Source: a virus
Length of the DNA stretch: 64,000 bases
Virus record (IMG/VR): IMGVR_UViG_3300045988_181613
Direction: 5' to 3' (one strand)
This document shows positions 4,526 to 57,821 of this stretch, one piece after another; the stretch's first letter is position 1; each line of letters opens with the position of its first letter. Both the position numbers and the translations under genes were made by a program. The notes beneath the pieces are model-generated. The model worked only from the letters and a program-made list of their open reading frames with translations, ran no database searches and was not told where the DNA came from.

Positions 4526-5089
4526 CTAATCCTCTTTCTCATTGTCTTTAGAAGTGTGTTTATTGGTAACATCAGCAATCTTTTTAGATAACTCTGCTAC
4601 TTTGGCTTTATCACCTCTTTTTACAGCACTTGTATATTCAGCTCTAAGTTTAGCTAAATTACCAGCTCCTTCATTGAAGTCTTCTGCTTTTGTATCACCA
4701 TAAGGTTTACCTACAACACCCTTCTTACGATTTTCAGGAGTATCTTTATAATATCCTGTCTTGGATTTTATTAAAGTATCGGGATTAATTTCTTCCTTCC
4801 ATTCAATCTGAGAAGGTCTCCAGAATAAGATCGATTTGCTTAAATCATCGTTCACAACAGTGACTCTATTCAAAGAAACAAAATCTATCGCTCCATACTC
4901 TTTTTCAATAGGATCAATACTTTTAAGAACATCTTGTGAAAATCTTTTCACTTGCTCCTCAGTATATATTTCATATTCTGGATTATCAAATTTAGAAAGG
5001 AATTCCTTTCTTGTCATATCTGCATATTTTTTCATAAACTTCTTATATTTACGAGTATCGTATTTTACAATGCCTAAATATAAGAACAA
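4526..5089 (-). CDS. Hypothetical protein
   Basis: 187-aa ORF; true start may be the Met at 5035 (MKKYADMTRKEF). Confidence 0.5.
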   Translation of the reverse strand: MFLYLGIVKYDTRKYKKFMKKYADMTRKEFLSKFDNPEYEIYTEEQVKRFSQDVLKSIDPIEKEYGAIDFVSLNRVTVVNDDLSKSILFWRPSQIEWKEEINPDTLIKSKTGYYKDTPENRKKGVVGKPYGDTKAEDFNEGAGNLAKLRAEYTSAVKRGDKAKVAELSKKIADVTNKHTSKDNEKED

Positions 5090-5130
5090 TAAATCTAATA
5101 GTCAATATTTTTCTTTGAAATAAATCATTT

Positions 5131-6150
5131 TCAAATTACTAAAGGCGAATATCTACTCTGGAGTTCTAAATAAAATTCTTTTAATAAACTTGTTTCTTTT
5201 ATATTAGAAGCCTCTCTTTCTAATCGATGTGCCATTAATTCTGTGATCTCACCCATTTCTGCAAGTTTCGTTAAAAAATATTTGATCTGTAAAAGGTATG
5301 AATTAAAATGCTCTTCAATACTTTTCCATTGTTCTTTTCCTTCTTGTAACTTATCTAATTGAATTTCAACAATTTGAATCATACGTGACCAATCTAAAAT
5401 AGAAAGATTAGCACCTTTTAAATTTGCTTTATCTAATTTTAATTTTTCTTCTGGAGTTACAATTTTATAACGTGAATATTTTATATCATCTTTATTAGTA
5501 AGTTCCATTATTTTTCTCATAATGATACTCTTCCATTGAGATCTTTCTGGAATTTCAAAATTCCAAGAATAAAAATTCTTATAAATACCATAACGTTTAG
5601 TTATCTCTTTTTTTGTAGGGGGTCTATGGAAAGAATCGCCGAAATATAATTTTAATTTTTGTATGGAATTTCTAACTTCACTGTAAGTAAAATCTATATT
5701 TTCCATAGATAGATTCCTGCAAATATAATCTATTCCGAAAAAGTAAGATTCCTCCGAATTAGATTTTTGCTCTATATCTAATTCATTTTCAAAGACATAA
5801 TGAATATGCTTGGCTTTTCTATATATCATACATAGAATTTTCCAGTCTTTGATATCCAAATGATATTTAGCATCTGGAATTTGATTTGTCAATAAAATAT
5901 AATCAGGAACTCTATCATATTCAATAGAAGGGATGAATTTCATTCTGTGAAGCTTATTATTATCAAATAATACTTCGCCAGATTGAATCATTTGATCCAA
6001 GGTCTTTTTTATAGTTTGTTTACTCCATCCTATATTTGATTCGATTGTTTCTATAAGATGATTAGGTGAATTAAAATAATTTCCTTTATTTCCTTTCCAA
6101 CCTGCAATTCTTGTAAGTTGACTTCTTAATATGTTTAATTTTTTCTCCAT
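5131..6150 (-). CDS. Hypothetical protein with N-terminal winged-helix-like segment
   Basis: 339-aa ORF; SKQTIKKTLDQMIQSGEV resembles a wHTH recognition region; follows the 6151-6641 non-coding region. Confidence 0.5.
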   Translation of the reverse strand: MEKKLNILRSQLTRIAGWKGNKGNYFNSPNHLIETIESNIGWSKQTIKKTLDQMIQSGEVLFDNNKLHRMKFIPSIEYDRVPDYILLTNQIPDAKYHLDIKDWKILCMIYRKAKHIHYVFENELDIEQKSNSEESYFFGIDYICRNLSMENIDFTYSEVRNSIQKLKLYFGDSFHRPPTKKEITKRYGIYKNFYSWNFEIPERSQWKSIIMRKIMELTNKDDIKYSRYKIVTPEEKLKLDKANLKGANLSILDWSRMIQIVEIQLDKLQEGKEQWKSIEEHFNSYLLQIKYFLTKLAEMGEITELMAHRLEREASNIKETSLLKEFYLELQSRYSPLVI

Positions 6151-47982: not shown

Positions 47983-48554
47983 CCTTCTATCTTTTTAATT
48001 GTAATTGTATTAACCACACCTTCAATTAATTCATCAAAAAACTCTTTTGGAGTTATTTTGGGTAAAATATTATTAAGCTTCTTATCTTTAGATTGTAAAG
48101 CCCAATAAAGAGAATCTACATAGCCTAAATCTTTTTCTGCTGAGATAATTCTTTTTTGTAAAACCTGATAGCCTCTGTCTCCAATAATAGCTTCCATTAA
48201 ACTATTTTCTGTCAGCTTAATCGAATCATCTCCAAGTTTAACTCTTCCGCCATTTAGCAGTGCTTCCTTGCGAAACTTTCTTTTTAAATCCGCTTCGTAA
48301 ATATTGCATTCTAACTTTACAGAAGATAGAATTGCCTGTGCATCAGCTCTCAATCCACCTACCTTATTCATCAATGCAGCACAGGTTACAGCTTCTCCAT
48401 AGATGTTTCCGTAATCAATAGAAGTTACGACATCCATATCAATTTCGGAAACATCATCACTGGAAATCAATACTATGTTTCTCTTATCATCTAAAGGAAT
48501 TAATTGTCTCATATTTTCTTTTCTTATTAATGTATGTTTCAATCCACGCTTCAT
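47979..48554 (-). CDS. Hypothetical protein
   Basis: 191-aa ORF; TATTTTTA box 48588..48595 is 34 nt upstream. Confidence 0.55.
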   Translation of the reverse strand: MKRGLKHTLIRKENMRQLIPLDDKRNIVLISSDDVSEIDMDVVTSIDYGNIYGEAVTCAALMNKVGGLRADAQAILSSVKLECNIYEADLKRKFRKEALLNGGRVKLGDDSIKLTENSLMEAIIGDRGYQVLQKRIISAEKDLGYVDSLYWALQSKDKKLNNILPKITPKEFFDELIEGVVNTITIKKIEG

Positions 48555-48587
48555 AAAGACGCGACATTCATCTTTCTTATTAATGTA

Positions 48588-48595
48588 TAAAAATA
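48588..48595 (-). promoter_or_regulatory. TATTTTTA promoter-like box
   Basis: 34 nt upstream of ATG 48554; variant box. Confidence 0.35.
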
Positions 48596-48625
48596 CGAAG
48601 AATTTTTCTTATAAACAATATCCCT

Positions 48626-50633
48626 TTAAACAATACTCATCCCAATAAACTCAGTATAATTACTTGTCTGAAGCACATATTCATCATGGAATTTATTATA
48701 TAAAATAAAGCCATTTAACAATAAAAGATTTCCTTCACAACCTCTCAAAAATTCACCATAATCTTCGAAAAGTTCTGGATAAACAAGCACTTTTATAAAC
48801 TCATAATTACTTTCAAGAACTAAATTACAGAATGGTCCTTTTTTAGATTTTCTCTCTTGAATCTCTAAAACATAACCTCCCATTGCAACTTGATTGTCAG
48901 AAGTGGCTTTCCATTTCTTCAAATCTTCAGCACTTATAAAATTGACATCCTTTCCAATATTCGGAGAAAGATAAGTCTTTACAAGTGTTTTATAATCAAA
49001 GAAACCAAAACCTGATTTTTTCTTTTGTTGCAGTTGCCACCACCATTCTAAAGATGTTTTTCCTTTTTCATGCGCAATTGTATAGTCATCTTTAGTAGGA
49101 TCGATCTTAACCTTTTGATTTTTCCTATACTGTTGCAATAAGGTTTCTCTCTGTAAAAACGGTGAACCATCACTTTGATTTAATTTATCAAAAGCACCTG
49201 AATAAATTAAATTTTCTATGACAGATTTATTTACAGCCGATCCTTTAAAAAGATGCCTGTCAAGAAATTCTTCAAAAGAAAAATAAGGTCCATTTTCTTT
49301 CCTTTCTGAAATAAGTTGCGCCTGTGCTTTTTCTCCAACCTGATCGACTGAATTTAATGCCCAATACATACTATTGGTGGTAGGATCACTTATAATATTT
49401 ATCTCAGATTTGTTGATGTCAACTGGACGAATTTCTATATCACCAGAATTTCTAATCTCATTAATATAATAAGGGAAATCATCCATACTACCTCGACTAA
49501 ATGCTACTGACCAAAATTCAATAGGATAATGAACTTTCAGCCATTCACAATTATATCCATTTATTGAGTAAGCTACTGAATGCGACTTATTAAATAAATA
49601 AGAGGAAGCTTTTACAATTTCATCCCAAAAATCCTTTGCATATTCTGGTGTAACGCCATGACGAGAACAATATCCTTCAATAAACTTTGTTTCCAAAGAT
49701 TTAATTACATCGATCTTTTTCTTACCCATTGCCTTACGAGCAGTATCACAAGTAACAAGATCCATTCCAGCTAATTCATGCATCAAAGCCATTACCTGTT
49801 CTTGATATACAAATAAGCCGTAAGTCTGCCCTAATATTTCTTCTGTTCCTATATGATATTCTACTTCTCGTTCTCCAGATCTTCTAAGTAAGTACTCATT
49901 GTGGAAATTATTTTCTATTGTACCAGGACGATATAAAGCTGCGCAGTCGCTAAGTTCATCAATACTCGAAGGACCCATCTGAACACAATAAGAAGACAAA
50001 CCTTTTGCACCAAAGTGAAATACATCTCCTAAGAACCCTTTCTGGAAATAAGAAAAAACTTTTTTATCATCCAGAGGAATATCTTTGTAGAGATCGATTC
50101 TTTTTCCGTGATGTTCTTCAACAAGATTCAATATATCTGTAAATTTATCCAATTGCTCAATTCCAAGAACGTCTTCTTTTAAGAAACCAGCAGCATCTAA
50201 TTCCCCACCTTCCCATTCACTGACAATCATATCTTTTTGCTTTCGAACAGGCACCCACTCATACATTGTTTTATTATCAGGGAAAATCATCATAGCGCAT
50301 GCATGAATAGAAGCTGCTTTTGGTTGTCCGAGAATAAGTAACATGTCATTGAACATGTCCGAGTACTTCTTCACAAAGTTTCTCAATTCCTCACTGGCAC
50401 AAACTGTTTTCCAAAAGTCATCTGCTGTTTTTTCTTTTTCTAATCCTAATTTACTGGTAAATCGTCTAACCGTAGGAATATCAACTCCTTCTTGACGGCA
50501 AAGGTCTGTTATAGCTGCCTTTAATTGCAAAGTAGTATAGGTACCTACGGAACATACTTGTGATTGACCGAATCTTTGTTCCATATATTCTTTTACTAAA
50601 GGACGTTGTTCTCCACCGAAGTCAGTATCGACT
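48626..50633 (-). CDS. dnaE: DNA polymerase III alpha subunit, C-terminal coding segment (3' exon)
   Basis: The frame is open from just after a TGA (50636..50634): (V)VDTDFGGEQRPLVKEYMEQRFGQSQVCSVGTYTT. It aligns residue-for-residue with the DnaE catalytic PDxDxDF...R..V..Y....YG...TFGT block. There is no start codon before Met 50584. Confidence 0.85.
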
Positions 50634-50701
50634 CACTCAAATATCCGGCAGCGACCCACCTTGAAGTCTTTGCCGGATATTCTTCTTTATAGTTTTAATT
50701 G

Positions 50702-51487
50702 TTAACATTTTATTTCTCCTCTCAAATTATTAATTAATTCTTCTACGTTTTCAGGAACTTTATTAGATTTAGACGGGTTGTCTTCAGCCCATAGAGGTTG
50801 TAAATTTCTGAAATTGAAACAAATCCTTTGTTGCTCTAAATCAGAAAGATCAAAGTAATCACAAGGAATAATATGATCAACATGCCATTCTCCCATATTT
50901 TTCCAGGTCATTCCTTCTTGGAACTGAGATTCAAGATACTGCTTTAACTTTAAAGGAGTACATCCTAACAGTTCAATCGTTTTTGCACATTTACATTCTC
51001 CGATTAAAGCACTATGAAGTCTATGTCTTAATCTTGAGATTAACCTTTTTAAGGGATCTCTTTCTCTAATACGAGACCATTCCTTTATCTTTTCGGGATT
51101 GTTAATTCTATAATCCTTTATCTTTTCAATAATAATATCCCTGTTTTTTTGATAATATAAAGGATTATATTCTTTCATGTACCCAGGATTTTCTGTTCTA
51201 AAAATTTGTAACATGTTCTTATTACATTCTTTACAAGAACAACTATACCCATCAATTCTACCAATATCTTTATTAAAAAAACTTATTGGTAAGATTCTTC
51301 CACAACGTTGGCATTTCTTTTCAAAAACTTCTTTTTTTTCTTTATTTCTATTATTTTTTCTATTTTTAGCAACCTCCTTTTTATTACATTCCTTGCAATA
51401 AGAATTATATCCATCCTTACTGGCAGAACATTTATAAAATTCTGAGAGCTCCTTATTTTCTTTACATTTTATACAATATTTCATCAT
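50702..51487 (-). mobile_element. Zn-ribbon + HNH homing-endonuclease-like gene (family member 2), inside the dnaE intron
   Basis: Two CxxC...C(K)xC modules (CIKCKEN...YCKECN; CQRCGRI...CSCKECN), then LLGC...QFQEGMTW...WHVDHIIPC...NLQPLWAEDN. Confidence 0.8.
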
Positions 51488-51509
51488 TTAAAATTTTATC
51501 GTTCTTCTG

Positions 51510-51517
51510 TAAAGATA
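51510..51517 (-). promoter_or_regulatory. TATCTTTA promoter box inside the dnaE intron
   Basis: GCATTATCTTTACAG, 23 nt upstream of ATG 51487 of the intron-borne HNH gene. Confidence 0.5.
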
Positions 51518-51615
51518 ATGCTTTTATTTCAATTATTTGATCGTTTCTTGAAATTTTTAATATTTTTTCTGCCTCTATTTCAAATTCATCGTTTATTAAA
51601 ATCATTTCCACATCA

Positions 51616-51728
51616 ACTTTCTTACCTAAACGGCCAGATGATAAAAATCTTTCAAAAAGAAGATTATATTTCAATGGATTTACATTAGTAATTCCAAGTA
51701 AATAGGAACATAGACATCCTGCTGCTGA
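51616..51728 (-). CDS. dnaE: DNA polymerase III alpha subunit, middle coding segment (between intein and intron)
   Basis: SAAGCLCSYLLGITNVNPLKYNLLFERFLSSGRLGKKV: the DnaE GxGRGSAAGSLV..LGIT..P....LLFERFLN motif. The rest of track ORF 51462..51893 is intron read-through. Confidence 0.8.
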
Positions 51729-51836
51729 ATTATGAACAGTTATATTATTTACCGTATAAGAATGATGTCTATTATCAACCTGAAGATCATAAACCTTCCC
51801 TGAATAATTTATATATTTCTTCTTTTGTAATTTCAT
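51729..51836 (-). mobile_element. DnaE intein C-terminal splicing segment (36 aa)
   Basis: MKLQKKKYINYSGKVYDLQVDNRHHSYTVNNITVHN followed by Ser+1 (51728..51726). Same length and block F/G pattern as split-intein C-fragments. Different frame from the N-part, overlapping it by 50 nt. Confidence 0.75.
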
Positions 51837-52746
51837 TTTTCTTAAATTTTTGCCATCTAAACCCTTTATAACTCTTATTTGATTTCCCTGCAACAGTATT
51901 TATCGAATTTATGATAAAACCTGTTTTGTTTTTTAAATCTAAAGGAGAGTCATAGATATGAAGAATTTCCCCTTTTTTCGATAATTGCACAATATAAGAT
52001 AATGAATTCTTTTCAGAAAATCGTTTACATAATTCAGGTGTCATTAATTTATTATTCTTCATTCTTTCAGAATTAATTTTTCTTTTTTCTTCAGTCCACC
52101 TTTCACTTGTTTTTACACCTACAGAAATCTTTTCCTTAATAGAATTCATATATTCAGAACCTAAGACTCCATATATATTACCACCGTCACCTCCTGGTGC
52201 TATATTATAAACCAAATCACCAAATTTAGATCTATATTCTTCTATATAAAATTTTTCTCGATTGTTTAAATTAGAAGGATTTTCAACATATTCAATAATT
52301 TCCCATAAAAAAGATTCCCATCCATTTTTCTCTATTGATTCATAAAAAGGAGTTCTTATTTCTTTGTTCTGAAAATCCTTTTTATGAAAATTAATTCTTT
52401 TCTCCAGACCTTGAGTTGTTTTACCTATATAGATCTCCCCGGTTTTTAAATTCGTTGCTTTATAAATTAAAGGTCCTATATAAATAACATTGTCTTCTTC
52501 AGTTAATTTATCTGCTTCTACCCAACCACGATTCTTTGTGTAAAATTGATGATCTTTAGTACATTGAATTTTTATACCCGCCTCAAATTCTAATTCAACT
52601 ATCTCTTCATTACAATCATATTCAAATCGATTAATTACCTGATTCTTCTCATTCCAATAAGTAGAAAGATTATCTCCAATTTGAACGTCTTCAATGTTTT
52701 TTTTGGTTCCGTCTTTTAAAAGGACTTTTTGTCCTGGAAGAAAACA
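51787..52746 (-). mobile_element. DnaE intein N-terminal splicing domain fused in frame to a GIY-YIG homing endonuclease
   Basis: Cys1 at 52746..52744 after LLGAGRG. CFLPGQKVLLKDGTKKNIEDVQIG, block B CTKDHQF. Then IYKATNLKTGEIYIGKTT...R..H...E...N (GIY-YIG), NUMOD3-like repeats, tail YKGFRWQKF. Stop at 51787. Confidence 0.8.
52673..52710. repeat. 38-nt stretch identical to 31878..31915
   Basis: See partner copy. Confidence 0.9.
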
Positions 52747-54096
52747 ACCTCTACCCGCACCTAATAAAATATTGTTTTTCTTACACCAATTTACAATATC
52801 TCTTAGGATCAAGAAGTAATCAATAACATCCCCTTCTGTAATTACTTTGATTTCCCTATCAATTCTTTCTCCCACGACATCAATTCCATAATCTTCAATA
52901 AGATCAAGATGATCTTCCATTCCCTTAAAAACAAGTTCAGTGAACATAGTTTTATTATCAGGATAAAGTTTCGATTCCTCTTCTGTCATGTAATATTTAG
53001 GTAGATGTCTTTGGCCGGTTTCAATTGTATAATCACATTTTGAACATACATCTTTTAAATTATTCACAGCAGCTTCAAACACATCGAAAAACGAATCAAA
53101 ATCACCAAATAATTCACCTAATTCGAAATAATATTCTTGATTGTTTTTAAAATATTGGTTTTGGCTTTCATAACTCATAGTTCCAGCTATTTTATTTAGC
53201 CTAACTCGGTTATATGCATATTCTCTCTCCAAATAATATGCATCACACATAGCAATCGGAGAAAAATTAGAATCAAAAAACTTTTTTAAATTCTGTAAGT
53301 ACCATTTATCACGATCTTCCTTTTCATAGACAACCGTATCTAACTGGTAATAAAATTGTTGGCTAAACATTTTCCAAAGTTTGGAAACATCCTCAAATTC
53401 AATTGTTTTAGGATCTAAAATAATTATTAAACCCTCTCTTAATTGTTCGATTTCCTTTTCAGTAACATAGCCATTCTCGACATTAATTATGCGATTAATC
53501 TCTAAAATATTCAGCCAACCCTGTTCATTTTTAACAAAAGCTTTTACAGTATATTGCAAATCTTTCTCTTCAACCTTTATTGGAATTTCCATTCCAAAAA
53601 TAGGTCTGATATTTGCTTTTTTACAAGCTTCCTGAAATTTTAAAATTCCTGCAAGAGTTCCTTTTTCACATATACCAAGACTTTTGATGCCTAAAAAATT
53701 AGCTTTCTGGCACCATTCCTTATACAATCCACTTCCGTTTAAAAGTTCGAAAGGACCGTGGACTCCTAAGAAACAATCTACTTTTAAACATGGTTCTGAA
53801 AACTCAGCATTACCAAGCCAAAGTACTCTTTCTAATTTTACAGAACTTTCTTCTCCCGCTTTTAAGCGATACCAAATACCACCAAACCGGAAAATATAAT
53901 AATCATATTCCGTTCTATCACTATCCCAACAAAAACTTTCATCAAAAAACGAACCTTCATTATTAGGAAGTGACAATTGATGCTTCTCCCCATTGATAAT
54001 CACAACTGGACGTTCATCATTTAAAATTTGTAGAATGGAATATGAAATGAAATGTTCTTCTAAATATCTTTTTAAATCTTCAAACAGTTCTTCCAT
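52747..54096 (-). CDS. dnaE: DNA polymerase III alpha subunit, N-terminal coding segment (PHP domain to GAGRG)
   Basis: PHP-like FLGVHGPFELLNGSG...IRPIFGMEI; ends ...NNILLGAGRG immediately before intein Cys1. Confidence 0.85.
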
Positions 54097-54195
54097 ATTG
54101 ATAAAATTAAAAAAGACTCTGGATATTCTCCTGAATCCACTAAATATGGATTATAGAGTTCCCAGAGTCTTTTAGCATTAACCTAAAAATTTTTT

Positions 54196-54882
54196 TTATT
54201 CTGCAGCTTCTTGAGAATCAGTAGTCTCAGCGCTCTGGGCCTCAGTTTTAGCTTCAGCAACAGCTTCGGTGGCTACTGGCTCAAAATAGGTTTCGGCGAT
54301 TCGCCGTACCATATTGTAATGTGAGCCTAAATCACGGGCAATCGTTCCATAAGATCGGCCGTCATTCTTCAACAGCTCTGCATAGATTTTTTTACTGGTT
54401 TCTGCTTTCAATACCGGTTCGATACCTTCTTTCGGACGAATATTCGTCATTGCTGCTGCGGGACGTTTAGCTGCTTTGAGAGCTGCTTTAGCAGCCTTCT
54501 TCTCTGCCTTCTCAGCTTCTTTCTTTGCTTTTGCTTCAGCTTTCTTTGCCTCTTTTTCTTTGGCGGCAGCTTCTTTCTTTGCTTCACGTTCTGCAGCTTT
54601 GGCAGCAGCCTTCTCTTCTTTGGTCAACTTCGGTTTCTGATTGGGATCAATTTCAGCAGCCTGTTCTGCTGAAATTTCTTCAGCACCGTCTTCGGCAACT
54701 TTTTCTTTCAGTTCCTGTTTGTCTTCCTCAGTAACAATGGTTTCCGGATCCTGTACTATGTCCTGACCTTGTTTTTTTGCGGCGATCACTTTTGCCAACT
54801 CTTCTTTCGTGTACTTAGCGTAATTTTCAATTCCTAACGCCTGCGCTTCTTTACGAAGTTCCAATAAATTCAAAACTTTCAT
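54196..54882 (-). CDS. HeH/Rho-N domain protein with Lys/Ala/Glu-rich repeat region (histone H1-like)
   Basis: Start moved to Met24 (MKVLNLLELRKEAQALGIENYAKYTKEEL) because box 54922..54929 lies in the longer ORF; KAAEREAKKEAAAKEKEAKKAEAKAKKEAEKAEKKAAKAALKAAKR. Confidence 0.6.
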   Translation of the reverse strand: MKVLNLLELRKEAQALGIENYAKYTKEELAKVIAAKKQGQDIVQDPETIVTEEDKQELKEKVAEDGAEEISAEQAAEIDPNQKPKLTKEEKAAAKAAEREAKKEAAAKEKEAKKAEAKAKKEAEKAEKKAAKAALKAAKRPAAAMTNIRPKEGIEPVLKAETSKKIYAELLKNDGRSYGTIARDLGSHYNMVRRIAETYFEPVATEAVAEAKTEAQSAETTDSQEAAE

Positions 54883-54921
54883 CTTTTTATAAATTAAAAT
54901 TGTTTGTTTCTTATAACACTC

Positions 54922-54929
54922 TAAAGATA
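54922..54929 (-). promoter_or_regulatory. TATCTTTA promoter box
   Basis: 40 nt upstream of ATG 54882. Confidence 0.55.
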
Positions 54930-54986
54930 CGAACTCTATTTGATATAACAAAATGTTAGCTCGCTTTTTCGAAAAAATTTTCTTTT

Positions 54987-55661
54987 TTAGACTCCCTCTT
55001 TAATCTCTTTTAGGAGCTGTGCATAATTAGGAGGTAAGTTATTTGATTTTCTTAAATTATCTTCTACTTTTAAAGGTTGAAAATTTCTCCAATTCCAACA
55101 AATATAAAGATTTTCTTCAATAGAGAGATCAAAATAAGAACAAGGAATGATATGATCAAGATGCCAATAAGTGCCTTTATTCGCCCAAGTCATATTTTCA
55201 TCAAATTGAGATTCAATATATTCTTTAAAATCATTCCAAGAACAACCAAGATATTCCCAAGAGCAATGTTTACGGCCATAAGAACATTTTTGATTTATAT
55301 AAGTTCTAAAATCTGTTACCAGCTTAAACAAAGGATCTTCTTTTCTTCGACGCCTTCTTCTTTCTGCAGATTTACCTGAAACAACTTCTCGCTTATGACT
55401 CTCTTGATGTTTTTCAGATCCATAATATTTCTGATGGGCTTCTTTCCCTTTTTTAGAATGATTATATTCTCTTTGACATTCTTTGCAACGGTAAAAAAGA
55501 ATTCCGTTTTTTAAAACAGAAAATTCTTCAATAGATTTCCATTTCTTACAAACCCTACATTCTTTTTTACCATCGACAATAGATCTCTTATCCCCTTTTT
55601 GCATGCTCGGTAATTTCCTTTTCGCATACCTCTTTGAAAAACTCTTTATTATCTCCCTCAA
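54987..55661 (-). mobile_element. Zn-ribbon + HNH homing-endonuclease-like gene (family member 3)
   Basis: CRVCKKWKSIEEF...YRCKECQ; YLGC...QFDENMTW...WHLDHIIPC...NFQPLKVEDNLRK. 5' end overlaps queC; start may be Met 55604. Confidence 0.75.
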
Positions 55662-56379
55662 TCAACGACTCTAATCCATTGCAATAAAGAGCTAAATTTC
55701 GCTCACAGCAGGTACCGCAACGATTACAAGGATTTCCATCTTTATCAGGTCCTTTATAACAAGACCATGTATTATTAATAATATCAGCCTGCTCTCTTTT
55801 TGAGAAATTCAAAAAATCCATGGCATAGATTCCTTCTTTCAAAACATCTATTTTATCAAGATTCACAAAAGGTGCTTGATAAGAAATCTTATCACTATCC
55901 CAATTAGAGATCTTGAATGCATTTTCGCAAGCAAAACGACTTTCTTCAGTGCAGTCCGGGTAACATGTTGAATCCCCTTTATGAATCCCTAAAAAGATTT
56001 CAACATTGGTATCATATTTCTTTGCCAAGGAAAGAGCTTTTCCATAAATAATAGAAGCAAAAATAACATTTCTATTTTCTATTACGGTGGATTTCATATT
56101 TTCATCAGCATAATGACCTTCTGGTATTTTTTCACCATTCTGATGCAGAGAGGATTGACTGTCGCTAAAACAATCTCTTAGATCGATACACTGTAACTCA
56201 ACTGGATAACCCTTTCCAGAAAGAAAAGAAATATTCTGTTTGAGTTTGTGCTGTTCCACAATATGTTTCTGCCCATAATTAAAAGAATAACATTTTACTG
56301 TATATCCTTCCATTAAAAGCGAAAGTAAGAGGCAGGTACTGTCCAAACCCCCTGAAATACTTAAAACTGCTAATTTCAT
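55588..56379 (-). CDS. queC: 7-cyano-7-deazaguanine (preQ0) synthase
   Basis: Start moved to MKLAVLSISGGLDS (box 56402..56409 is 23 nt upstream); PP-loop SGGLDS; C-terminal Zn cluster CNRCGTCCER. Confidence 0.85.
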   Translation of the reverse strand: MKLAVLSISGGLDSTCLLLSLLMEGYTVKCYSFNYGQKHIVEQHKLKQNISFLSGKGYPVELQCIDLRDCFSDSQSSLHQNGEKIPEGHYADENMKSTVIENRNVIFASIIYGKALSLAKKYDTNVEIFLGIHKGDSTCYPDCTEESRFACENAFKISNWDSDKISYQAPFVNLDKIDVLKEGIYAMDFLNFSKREQADIINNTWSCYKGPDKDGNPCNRCGTCCERNLALYCNGLESLIEGDNKEFFKEVCEKEITEHAKRG

Positions 56380-56401
56380 TTTCGTTCTTATTTTAATACT
56401 A

Positions 56402-56409
56402 TAAAGATA
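56402..56409 (-). promoter_or_regulatory. TATCTTTA promoter box
   Basis: 23 nt upstream of queC ATG 56379. Confidence 0.55.
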
Positions 56410-56419
56410 CAAAACTAAA

Positions 56420-56983
56420 TCATTTAACAGGCTTAAAAAGGATCGCTTTAATAGCCTTCACTCTTTCTTCTACAGATCCATGCATAATTAAATGTGAAAT
56501 CAAATTACTATGCAAAATCTGATGAATTTTTCCGTCAATTTCTTTTTGATATTCTTTATCGATAGAGCGGACGCCATCGGCAACAATTTCAAATTCAATA
56601 GGGAAATAACAAACTAATCCTAATTCAGACTTTCTTTGAATAATTTCCTTCTCTTGTTTCTGCTCCAATTCTATCCATTTATCAATATTACTCATTGCAG
56701 CATTTCGACCGGATGCTGTATAAGCGCATACATCAATAATACAACGATCAGAAACATAAGAATTTTGCTTACTCAAAACATTTTCATAAGCTTCGAATAA
56801 AACTTCCTGAGTTTCTGGAGTACCTTGTTTATTAATTGTTATCCCCTTTTCTTTGACAAAGTTACGAACAACTTCTGTCACAAATTCAAATTCAGCAAAT
56901 TCAGGATCTTGTTGAAGTGCTTTTAAAACACTTGTTTTCCCGGTTCCCTGAGCTCCTGTAAAATTAATTCTTTTGATATCCAT
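56420..56983 (-). CDS. P-loop NTPase, AAA_28/NadR-kinase-like
   Basis: FTGAQGTGKTSVLKAL Walker A; overall layout like NadR-type nucleoside/nucleotide kinases; embedded between queC and dpdA-like. Confidence 0.55.
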   Translation of the reverse strand: MDIKRINFTGAQGTGKTSVLKALQQDPEFAEFEFVTEVVRNFVKEKGITINKQGTPETQEVLFEAYENVLSKQNSYVSDRCIIDVCAYTASGRNAAMSNIDKWIELEQKQEKEIIQRKSELGLVCYFPIEFEIVADGVRSIDKEYQKEIDGKIHQILHSNLISHLIMHGSVEERVKAIKAILFKPVK

Positions 56984-57821
56984 GAAATTCTTTGATATTT
57001 TTTATTACACAATTGTATTGTTCCGGATCAAGTGACATTCGAAAATATTCATCGATACTAATCTTTTCTTTTTCACCTGCATCTAAATGAGCTTTCATAA
57101 TCCCTTTAGTTACAGGGAAAGAAGTGTCCATTGAAGTAATCCATTCAAATTCATCTCTCATTGGATTTCTATATGTTAGCCATTGTAATTCTGCTGCCCA
57201 ATGACAACCAAGAAGATGATATTTTTTTGAATCATCAATCAATTTCTCTTTTATCAAATACTGTAAAAGAAAACAACGACCCTGTGCATAAGCCATATCA
57301 GCATTCCACTTAAATGCGAGATGCTCGTGCTTCGACAATACTTCATATATTGCAGTTCCTAAATCCCAGAAGAAGTCATTGTGAAAAGGAATTCCAATAT
57401 ATTCAAAACCTCCTTTATTTAGCATTTCTTTATAACAAGATAGCCAATCTTTAAGAGATTTTCCCTGAGGAACTACCATTCTTTTATGTCCATTTAATCG
57501 ACCGCCCCAATAACGGAATTTCATCATTGTCTCTGGATAATCCATCAACACATCAGGAACAATAAAATAAGTAGGATTAAATTCCTCTACAATTTCGGTA
57601 AATGTCTGAGGATCAAATTTACCACCATCTCGATAAAATTCATAAGCTGAATTATCTAAAATAGTCATTCTCTTCCCTTCTTTCATTACCTGGGAAAAGA
57701 ACCTCCTATAGTCCTTATCTTTGACGAATAAATGATATAATATAAAATCATAATCATTTAGTTCCTCGCTTTTAGATAAAAGTTCCATAGGAAGTTCACA
57801 ATTTAAAAGAATTTTTTTCAT
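56964..57821 (-). CDS. dpdA: DpdA-like DNA (guanine) transglycosylase, TGT-fold (putative)
   Basis: Ordered barrel motifs ILDNSAYEF / FIVPDV / YIGIPF / YHLLGCHW / ITSMDTSFPV parallel the TGT DSGGFQ...LMGVG...GVDMFD; context with queCDE/folE. Confidence 0.6.
   Translation of the reverse strand: MKKILLNCELPMELLSKSEELNDYDFILYHLFVKDKDYRRFFSQVMKEGKRMTILDNSAYEFYRDGGKFDPQTFTEIVEEFNPTYFIVPDVLMDYPETMMKFRYWGGRLNGHKRMVVPQGKSLKDWLSCYKEMLNKGGFEYIGIPFHNDFFWDLGTAIYEVLSKHEHLAFKWNADMAYAQGRCFLLQYLIKEKLIDDSKKYHLLGCHWAAELQWLTYRNPMRDEFEWITSMDTSFPVTKGIMKAHLDAGEKEKISIDEYFRMSLDPEQYNCVIKNIKEFHGYQKN

Follow-up and report, generated by a model that had tools for sequence, protein, structure and literature searches.

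In the fractured genes described by Dassa 2009 (PMC2677866), an N-extein joined to the N-terminal half of a split intein (IntN) is followed by a non-coding spacer of 27–51 nt, a free-standing gene for a GIY-YIG or Vsr-like endonuclease, and the C-terminal intein half (IntC) with the C-extein. Three DnaE loci were included in that set. The GIY-YIG family was described there as "not known to be present in inteins", and invasion of fractured genes by endonucleases was proposed as a route by which inteins gain nuclease domains. Fusions of IntN with a nuclease are predicted by this model and by Gosselin 2025. We have analyzed a 64,000 nt stretch of DNA (the window) from the IMG/VR virus record IMGVR_UViG_3300045988_181613, whose dnaE gene is interrupted by an element of 1018 nt (52746..51729; all window features described here are on the minus strand). 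We consider it quite probable that this element is a mobile class-1 split intein with an asymmetric layout, in which one gene encodes a fusion of IntN with a GIY-YIG nuclease and an overlapping gene encodes IntC, and for which trans-splicing and homing are proposed. What is seen directly is the anatomy of the element, the conservation of its catalytic residues, its split state, a presence/absence polymorphism accompanied by co-conversion tracts, and an architecture that recurs elsewhere.

The locus resembles fractured genes (those of PMC2677866 and AceL NrdHF, PMC7891396) in several features. The parts follow each other on one strand as they do there, with N-extein–IntN first, then the nuclease and then IntC–C-extein, the hosts are phage genes for replication or nucleotide metabolism, DnaE included, the nuclease can belong to the GIY-YIG family, and the break lies at the canonical point of nuclease insertion. 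IntN and IntC have about 91 and 36 aa here, compared with 88–105 and 33–54 aa in fractured genes. The difference lies in the nuclease. In fractured genes it is a separate open reading frame (ORF) after the 27–51 nt spacer, usually with a regulatory hairpin, whereas in the window IntN and nuclease form a single polypeptide, with no stop, spacer or separate start between them, and the 3' end of this gene overlaps IntC by 50 nt. An earlier note on this DNA had also drawn the comparison with fractured genes; the order of the parts agrees with it, but the separate endonuclease ORF does not.

The fusion gene, ORF1 (54096..51787), codes for 769 aa in a single frame. Its N-extein (52747..54096, 450 aa) contains the PHP domain and the start of the palm of the DNA polymerase III (Pol III) alpha subunit (Pfam PHP 2.3e-14, DNA_pol3_alpha 1.6e-9), ends in …LLGAGRG and is collinear with uninterrupted alleles of 1158 aa (proteins P0039 and P0040). 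IntN follows (52474..52746, about 91 aa), with the Cys1 codon at 52746..52744 and a block B formed by C62-T63-K-D65-H66. The intein part reads CFLPGQKVLL…CTKDHQF…NRGWVEADKLTEEDNV and then runs without a stop into IYKATNLKTGEIYIGKTT…, continuing at exactly the point where related split inteins end. The GIY-YIG homing endonuclease (51790..52473) is in frame with IntN, and a TGA stop is found at 51787..51789. As the earlier note had claimed from the letters alone, ORF1 thus joins a Hint N-lobe to a GIY-YIG domain up to the stop at 51787; Pfam recognizes both, with values of 6.5e-8 for Intein_splicing and 1.5e-7 for GIY-YIG, beside PHP and DNA_pol3_alpha. IntN shares 54–62% identity with its counterparts in other split DnaE proteins. 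The intein match is well beyond chance. On the other side of the break, IntC (MKLQKKKYINYSGKVYDLQVDNRHHSYTVNNITVHN, 36 aa, 51729..51836) has its own ATG at 51836..51834, in a frame different from that of ORF1, whose end it overlaps with its first 50 nt (51836..51787). It ends in …ITVHN, a His-Asn pair whose Asn codon is 51731..51729, followed by the +1 Ser of SAAG. The earlier note was also right about the position, frame and overlap of IntC, and about its likeness to the C-fragments of split inteins: Pfam finds the C-terminal end of Intein_splicing (profile positions 121–155) together with DNA_pol3_alpha in this second ORF (ORF2), and IntC is homologous to the free-standing IntC of two related loci, L002 and L004.

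The element is a clean insertion in the host gene. DNA alignment with the uninterrupted allele places it at exactly 52745..51728, which is equivalent to 52746..51729, and its excision in silico produces GAGRGSAAG, exactly as in the 1158-aa alleles. The intein-free target sequence is …TTAGGAGCAGGTCGTGGA/TCAGCAGCAGGATGTTTATGC…, where the slash marks the insertion point, and the intein-free allele of locus L006 carries …AATATTTTATTAGGAGCAGGTCGTGGATCAGCAGCAGGATGTTTATGCTCT…. After IntC, DnaE continues with a middle extein segment of 33 aa, SAAG…FERFLSSGR (51630..51728), which aligns with the uninterrupted allele (Pfam DNA_pol3_alpha 2.4e-11). The GAGRG/SAAG site aligns with PGRG/SGAGS in the solved structures of Pol III alpha from Taq and E. 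coli. The insertion point corresponds to E. coli G363/S364, as counted from the printed alignment, in the Gly-Ser motif of the nucleotidyltransferase palm. The functional role of this motif is taken from the structures of Pol III alpha.

The residues expected for splicing are all present. When IntN and IntC are joined, they are 59% identical to the split intein of L002, 57% identical to that of L004 and 40% identical to P0022, a contiguous mini-intein at the same dnaE site. C1, T63, H66, H128, N129 and S+1 (S130) are invariant with respect to the two split relatives and the contiguous one, and D65 of block B is likewise invariant in the alignment with relatives at the dnaE site. The features of a class 1 intein are therefore found together: Cys1, a TxxH block B, His-Asn followed by a +1 Ser, and a clean in-frame insertion in a host motif. 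In structure, the IntN model resembles Npu DnaE only weakly.

The separation of IntN and IntC in two ORFs is real. The 1018 nt element, including a run of five A's (A5) at 51840..51836, is identical base by base in the window and in the related loci L009, L010, L011 and L027, while L025 holds 974 nt of it, all of them identical to the window copy. These six identical assemblies come from different samples and from different assemblers and pipelines. A cluster look-up gave four distinct variants of ORF1, each with 769 aa, and also uninterrupted DnaE proteins of 1158 aa; the 744-aa protein formed by IntC and the C-extein is found on at least 10 contigs. More distant phages (L002–L005) have a similar break. 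In them, the N-extein and IntN stop right after …NRGW(I/V)KADELT(D/E)ED(E/D)I…, and from one to three unrelated ORFs separate this stop from the IntC gene, which starts MKLKNKKYF(Q/H)YKG(K/Q)VHDLEI…VVHN/SA(V/A)G. These separate IntC genes lie 1.4–2.9 kb downstream. Since they begin at a Met homologous to that of the window IntC (MKLQKKKYI…), the latter can be considered the Met of bona fide separate IntC genes. In none of the matches considered, all 32 from one search and the best 150 from another, were Hint-N, GIY-YIG and Hint-C found together.

The fused nuclease appears to be complete. The catalytic domain covers approximately intein residues 93–190, and beyond it lies a C-terminal region, unclassified and presumably DNA-binding, with …YKGFRWQKF at its end. 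A match to phrog_314 ("homing endonuclease", 2.8e-24) extends over residues 4–224. In a comparison with 11 GIY-YIG homologues, Y95, Y106, H121, E164 and N181 do not vary at all and R117 hardly varies. A search of PDB sequences with phmmer gave no matches for the nuclease, so that a comparison of folds was needed. The AlphaFold2 model, based on an alignment of 22 sequences, has a mean pLDDT of 67 overall and of 88–97 over residues 90–170, with low confidence beyond residue 190. Its best PDB matches by Foldseek are to the catalytic domain of I-TevI, 1MK0 and 1LN0, with TM scores of 0.82–0.84 and rmsd of 1.7–2.0 Å (0.83 and 1.7 Å for 1MK0). As far as alignment and model can tell, the catalytic residues and the fold are intact. 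The NUMOD3-like repeats proposed by the earlier note for the C-terminal region were not recovered, as Pfam finds no NUMOD match there even at E<=10.

Fusions of this type are not limited to the window. In an exhaustive phmmer search over 1.84 billion representatives, a single alignment stretch spans IntN and GIY-YIG in several proteins, P0055, P0091, P0124, P0157 and P0106, whose N-exteins all belong to class II ribonucleotide reductase (NrdJ). These fusions have a common order: C/FHPDT…NRGW(V/I)EA..LT..DD(L/I)V, then IY(K/R)(I/F)TN…YIG, then NUMOD3 repeats, with no IntC. When clustered at the 90% level, fusions of an NrdJ N-extein, IntN, GIY-YIG and NUMOD3 fall into at least 29 groups (P0157, P0191–P0218), with full-length coverage and identities of 43–100%. 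Some of them bear the name "NUMOD3 domain-containing DNA-binding protein", in Chromatium okenii and in a Minisyncoccota metagenome-assembled genome, or "group I intron endonuclease". Such annotations hide the intein context, and the architecture is being missed. A separate IntC ORF was seen in the one NrdJ locus that was read, L022 (3001..4700). There, the TGA of the fusion ORF overlaps the next ATG (ATGA), and the next ORF, MKISSVTPIIDEQDYYDITVEDTHNFLLADGSIVHN/CGTGVGF…, codes for IntC and the NrdJ C-extein. We have found no paper describing IntN–GIY-YIG fusions in a literature search, made in an incomplete searchable library. The earlier note had called the arrangement unusual, which has to be qualified, since many NrdJ genes are fused in the same way.

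Related arrangements are found at the same dnaE site. In L002 and L004, a free-standing ORF between IntN and IntC matches DUF7487 and, weakly, a TnsA-like endonuclease. This putative nuclease gene is accompanied by ORFs of 564 and 90 aa in L002 (6831..9684) and by an ORF of 73 aa in L004 (8762..9875). In P0002, the domain joined in frame to IntN shares 32% identity (E = 7e-18) with this free-standing ORF. In fragment P0115, a related dnaE-type IntN runs in frame into a GIY-YIG domain. All stages of the model for nuclease gain are represented at this one site: a contiguous mini-intein (P0022 and locus L030), a split intein whose nuclease gene stands free (L002, L004), a fusion of IntN with this nuclease (P0002), and IntN fused to GIY-YIG (the window). 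L002 and L004 also have further inteins in the C-part of DnaE, a mini-intein in L002 (9668..12568, FNK/C…VTSN/SHS) and a LAGLIDADG-containing intein in L004 (9881..13450, LTYG/C…LVHN/CLLFQEQ). Because of these additional inteins, dnaE in this phage group is invaded at three or more intein sites, in addition to the nuclease split site described below.

The intein is polymorphic among closely related phages, as is a second cassette, also described below, which interrupts the same gene. Near-identical phages may have neither element (L006–L008), only the intein (L009–L011), only the second cassette (L012, L026, L028) or both (the window, L025, L027). All four allele states exist in the gut-phage population at nearly 100% background identity, which offers a ready-made system for measuring how the elements home and co-convert their flanks and what each of them costs. 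The flanks of intein-bearing and intein-free alleles differ at synonymous sites only, along a tract of variable length. Upstream, the sequence is GGTGCGGGTAGAGGT in the window and in L009–L011, or GGGGCAGGTAGAGGT in L027, compared with GG(A/G)GCAGGTCGTGGA in intein-free alleles. Downstream, the variant CTATGTTCC/GGATGTCTATGTTCC is limited to the window and L010, that is, two of the six intein-bearing loci. The presence of an identical element in several backgrounds, flanked by co-conversion tracts of variable length, is the classical sign of recent homing through the repair of double-strand breaks: Judging from these sequences, the intein is currently mobile. Because these phages are abundant, the fused nuclease is presumably active and splicing presumably works.

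We have considered whether the element could really be a contiguous intein with a GIY-YIG domain, as the earlier note suggested in case A5 was one base too long. Deletion of one A at 51840..51836 does fuse the two frames cleanly, as …WQKFKK-MKLQ… (WQKFKKMKLQKKKY), so that the locus is a single-base deletion away from such an intein. As it stands, ORF1 ends at 51787 and IntC has to be read in a different frame, which does not correspond to the definition of a contiguous nuclease-containing intein. A homopolymer error, A5 for A4, in one assembly would have to be present in all six assemblies, in spite of their different samples and pipelines and of the coverage of the window contig, approximately 196x. 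It would also have to leave all four ORF1 variants with 769 aa, allow the 744-aa IntC protein to be called on ten or more contigs, and create by chance a start at the very Met which opens the free-standing IntC genes of relatives. The NrdJ family, moreover, shares the two-ORF layout with a different junction, ATGA. The identity of the six assemblies effectively excludes a sequencing error, and we give this explanation almost no credit; the other suggestion of the earlier note, a true split intein with the nuclease on its N-fragment, is supported by the same evidence. A different question is whether the split in the DNA is overcome by +1 frameshifting or by transcriptional slippage at A5, producing a meaningful share of contiguous GIY-YIG intein. 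A tRNA-Lys could re-pair +1 on AAG-AAA-AAU, and recoding may already operate elsewhere in this dnaE gene. Nevertheless, five A's are a short run for slippage, no stimulatory element is evident, relatives cope with IntC genes located kilobases away, the NrdJ examples have no comparable slippery run at the junction, and trans-splicing does not need recoding. A meaningful share of contiguous product is therefore very doubtful.

The in-frame junction between IntN and nuclease might also be incidental, the nuclease being made separately from a non-canonical internal start and the fusion being a tolerated by-product. The free-standing homologues have their GIY motif 1–3 residues after the initiator Met, ATT and ATA codons are found just upstream of the motif in the window, and fragment P0115 has an in-frame Met directly before it. 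On the other hand, reading of the junction between …NRGWVEADKLTEEDNV and IYKATN shows neither a stop nor an in-frame ATG, GTG or TTG, and none of these starts is found all the way from block B to the GIY motif. With IntN in front, the nuclease would be made only as a fusion, unless a non-canonical start is used. No stop releases IntN, so each translation of ORF1 produces the fusion, and the five NrdJ fusion proteins that were read, from at least 29 clusters, have no Met at the junction either, which argues that the fused form itself is maintained. An incidental junction is unlikely, if less so than recoding at A5. Decay of the element, with splicing or nuclease dead and a dnaE allele which is non-functional or dispensable, is even less likely than such recoding: it is very improbable. 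The window allele does carry two disruptive elements, the second of which leaves a frame-breaking insert of 10 nt. However, all catalytic residues of intein and nuclease are intact, the element is present in several genetic backgrounds with fresh co-conversion tracts, and the phages which carry it reach high coverage and occur in many samples. Some points do weigh against our interpretation as a mobile split intein with a fused nuclease. Splicing by the IntN/IntC pair and cleavage by the fused nuclease are both inferred activities. The IntC start is buried 50 nt inside ORF1, and the route of initiation is only proposed; a contiguous product may also arise from a low level of +1 recoding at A5. 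The catalytic domains of the homologues are at a free N-terminus, while here they are preceded by IntN or by 540 residues. The intein is 100% identical in every copy, so substitutions provide no evidence for selection on the fusion junction, and P0115 is the single fragment to suggest that a diverged dnaE relative shares this in-frame junction.

Under the interpretation of a split intein with a fused nuclease, ORF1 and the IntC gene would be translated from one shared transcript, with initiation of IntC at its own AUG, within a stretch very rich in A and U. IntN and IntC would then associate and rebuild the Hint fold. Trans-splicing by Cys1, the TxxH block, the terminal His-Asn and the +1 Ser would join …GAGRG to SAAG…. 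The homing nuclease would be the excised complex of IntN–GIY-YIG with IntC, or else the precursor. During co-infection, it would cut intein-free dnaE alleles, and repair would copy the element together with a short tract of flanking synonymous changes.

Other known systems share some of these features. In bifunctional inteins with LAGLIDADG or HNH nucleases, such as PI-SceI, the nuclease is also located after block B of the Hint fold and the element homes into the intein-free allele. The window nuclease differs from theirs, since it is a GIY-YIG enzyme, it is covalently joined on one side only, and its polypeptide ends before blocks F and G. The cyanobacterial split intein of Ssp and Npu DnaE has the same host protein, an IntC of 36 aa and the same Cys1 and His-Asn chemistry, but it has a different insertion site, in line with the published distinction between the newer DnaE split sites and the cyanobacterial one, its halves are at distant loci, it contains no nuclease, and it is fixed rather than polymorphic. 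I-TevI has the same catalytic fold and residues, a modular layout with an N-terminal catalytic domain before a C-terminal DNA-binding region, which is only presumed for the window nuclease, and co-conversion tracts on homing. On the other hand, I-TevI is encoded by an intron and has a free N-terminus, while the window nuclease lies behind an intein half and no named DNA-binding module has been detected in it. The acquisition of nucleases by inteins has been a model without observed intermediates, with the GIY-YIG family listed as absent from inteins. We infer the order of evolutionary events as follows: A nuclease gene invaded, giving a fractured gene, and then lost its own start and was fused to IntN; the element can best be seen as a half-fused intermediate. 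The fusion looks like a natural intermediate in the gain of nucleases by inteins, filling the predicted step. It may also be useful as a new split intein, with Ser at +1 and an IntN which naturally tolerates a C-terminal cargo of 230 aa.

The second mobile cassette (51629..50630) splits dnaE before its catalytic PDIDTDF motif. The first two Asp of PDIDTD align with D401 and D403 of E. coli, which we take to be the catalytic pair. Uninterrupted alleles read FERFLNEGR-AKV-SLPDIDTDFGGEQRPLVKEYMEQRFG, the frame of the window leaves DnaE after FERFLSSGR, and the cassette-free site has the sequence …CCTGATATTGATACAGATTTC…. The N-side fragment of DnaE acquires a tail of 55 aa, LGKKVDVEM…ILYKM (51465..51629), absent from uninterrupted alleles; its stop (51464..51462) is just inside the next ORF. 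A different tail is found in L012, and both are homologous at the protein level (z = 7.3, with none of 2000 shuffles reaching the score). A search with the 55-aa tail found only the tail itself and a 97% variant. The next ORF (50702..51487, 261 aa) codes for a homing endonuclease similar to endonuclease VII and HNH enzymes, of the ββα-Me type (phrog_1035 "endonuclease VII", 1.8e-27), whose relatives are free-standing between phage genes. A variant of 213 aa occupies the same site in L012, L026 and L027. The stop of the endonuclease overlaps the ATG at 50708 (ATGTTAA), which is the new start of the C-side fragment of DnaE (50640..50708): a head of 18 aa, MLTIKTIKKNIRQRLQGG, followed by the native codons for SLPDI.

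A 10-nt insert, TGAGTGAGTC (50630..50639), then separates the Ile and Asp codons of PDI/DTDF, at a position where uninterrupted alleles have …GATATT/GATACA…. It contains a TGA in the incoming frame and another one in the outgoing frame, and it is identical in all seven cassette-bearing loci, the window and six others. The rest of dnaE, DTDFGGEQRPLVKEYMEQRFG… (DTDFGGEQ…), continues to its stop (48626..50629) with the finger and HHH_6 domains of Pfam. In the downstream frame, no start codon is found before the Met at 50584 (MEQRFG), which is already past the catalytic Asp residues. Over 1089 positions there are 10 differences between the window and L025; nine of these are within 90 nt around the insert and none within it. 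The five differences in the frame of the new start are four synonymous changes and one Ile to Val, and the four in the DnaE frame after the insert are all synonymous, which makes eight of nine. This pattern indicates that both flanks of the insert are evolving as coding sequence, in different frames. An RNA hairpin is predicted at 50639..50682, with a 12-bp stem, GAAUAUCCGGCA/UGCCGGAUAUUU, and an inner stem of 5 bp. Its 3' arm holds the last codons before the gap, and it ends exactly at the U of UGA. The 117-nt region 50712..50596 has a minimum free energy of -31 kcal/mol (z = -3.27). In L025, both substitutions that affect paired positions keep the pairing (G·U to A-U, U·G to C-G), and the same region there has z = -3.63.

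A comparable organization is known in T4, where an HNH-type homing endonuclease, mobA, splits an essential gene (gene 39–mobA–gene 60) at a metal-binding motif and adds C- and N-terminal extensions to the fragments. The mobA element has a frame-breaking insert which is bypassed by ribosomes and protects its carrier from its own nuclease. The window cassette is similar to it: A ββα-Me/HNH-type endonuclease splits an essential replication gene beside a metal-binding motif, both fragments have extensions, and a short frame-breaking insert is found soon after the new start, with a stop codon at its beginning. Terminal extensions are also found on the fragments of the Aeh1 nrdA–mobE split (PMC3045599). 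There are differences, however. In the window it is dnaE that is split, and not a topoisomerase gene or nrdA, the gap has a length of 10 nt instead of 50, and the hairpin is 5' of the take-off site, which lies in its 3' arm and not in the 5' arm as in T4 gene 60. Sequence homology to the MobA element was not seen, although no comparison aimed at it was made.

We give close to an even chance, perhaps slightly less, to a translational bypass of the 10-nt gap similar to that of T4 gene 60, a proposal based on this analogy. Ribosomes starting at the ATG at 50708 would stall when AUU occupies the P site and UGA the A site. They would hop 10 nt across UGAGUGAGUC (50639..50630), peptidyl-tRNA-Ile would re-pair with GUC, and decoding would resume at GAU, giving the wild-type SLPDIDTDF and the junction peptide LQGGSLPDIDTDFGGEQR. 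For this AUU/UGA take-off, the landing GUC is only a near-match, with G·U at the first position; P-site re-pairing in bypassing has been reported to tolerate mismatches. An alternative would be a 16-nt hop from GAU to GAU, which would give SLPDTDF, with P-D-x-D kept and either LQGGSLPDTDFGGEQR or LQGGSLPDIDFGGEQR as junction. The codons match exactly in this case, but there is no stop after take-off and two residues would be dropped. Some MobA elements are reported to use Asp codons. A GAG in the insert lies 6 nt before GAU, the spacing reported for the GAG of the T4 landing signal. The 12-bp hairpin could supply a forward pull by re-forming behind the ribosome, as has been proposed for the re-folding of the hairpin in T4 gene 60. 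The main alternatives are that the 10-nt insert is removed from the RNA by some other route, or that this dnaE allele is defective and still propagates. The two DnaE fragments would assemble non-covalently through the extensions provided by the cassette. That dnaE as a whole is rebuilt by three routes, namely trans-splicing, this non-covalent assembly and a 10-nt ribosomal hop, all of them forced on the gene by selfish nucleases, is a tentative proposal, whose chances we place a little short of even. If the bypass is true, natural translational bypassing linked to homing endonucleases would have a second family, independent of T4 gene 60. The latter would no longer be a curiosity of a single family, and the much shorter and simpler signal of the window would be of use for mechanistic work.

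Several other explanations of the second site have been discarded. Against a group I intron, Rfam gives no match at E<=1 over 48000..55000, neither a P1/P10 pairing nor an ωG which restores the protein was found, the 5' part is an ORF conserved at the protein level, and the 3' part has a substitution pattern of third codon positions. A second intein does not fit, with no nucleophile after …GR, no His-Asn before SLPDI and no significant similarity between tail and IntN (z = 1.4–2.0). The idea that the tail is a duplicated and diverged copy of the downstream exon, supplying the catalytic Asp residues, was rejected as well: The two are not significantly similar, and in place of the required D-x-D the L012 tail has Q-I-E. 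A simple ±1 frameshift across the insert is impossible, as each frame meets a TGA inside it. In a pattern scan for further copies of the cassette, IMG/VR gave 0 matches and the JGI metagenomes only two chance matches.

Locus L030, from an unrelated phage, has a dnaE gene split at the same place (4700..5705), with …FERFFNAGR plus 19 aa at the end of one piece and a head of 84 aa in frame with SLPDIDMDF at the start of the other. Its two ORFs overlap, with no nuclease gene and no frame-breaking insert. A DnaE divided in two at this place is therefore viable, with the catalytic motif on its C piece. This dnaE gene also has the contiguous mini-intein at the GRG/S site mentioned above.

The window has 32% G+C, and all of its 47 ORFs of at least 150 aa are on the minus strand. 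TGA is an ordinary stop here, used by 20 of these 47 ORFs, and no tRNA genes were found in the 64 kb. The window belongs to a phage with the standard genetic code. Recoding of TGA has been ruled out on these grounds and also because read-through restores neither frame. The dnaE gene of the window shows no more than distant similarity to annotated genes of phages, for example the one from Cellulophaga phage phiST. Closely related contigs of 20–112 kb are found in human-gut and other metagenomes, and the exact ORF1 protein is present on an 81-kb MEGAHIT contig (ENA assembly ERZ19617594, coverage approximately 196x).

Directly upstream of dnaE there is an ORF of 251 aa (54196..54951), with a long, low-complexity center rich in Ala, Lys and Glu. 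A counterpart of 228 aa is conserved in related loci, and no Pfam match is on record. Genes for QueC (7-cyano-7-deazaguanine synthase) and an AAA_28 protein are found just upstream (55588..57821). The queC neighborhood suggests that the phage modifies its own DNA with a 7-deazaguanine derivative, a modification which could affect the recognition of targets by homing nucleases. A third gene similar to homing endonucleases, also of the phrog_1035 family (54987..55661), follows queC (55588..56412) and is missing from the otherwise near-identical locus L006. Next to this gene, the last third of queC is replaced by divergent sequence.

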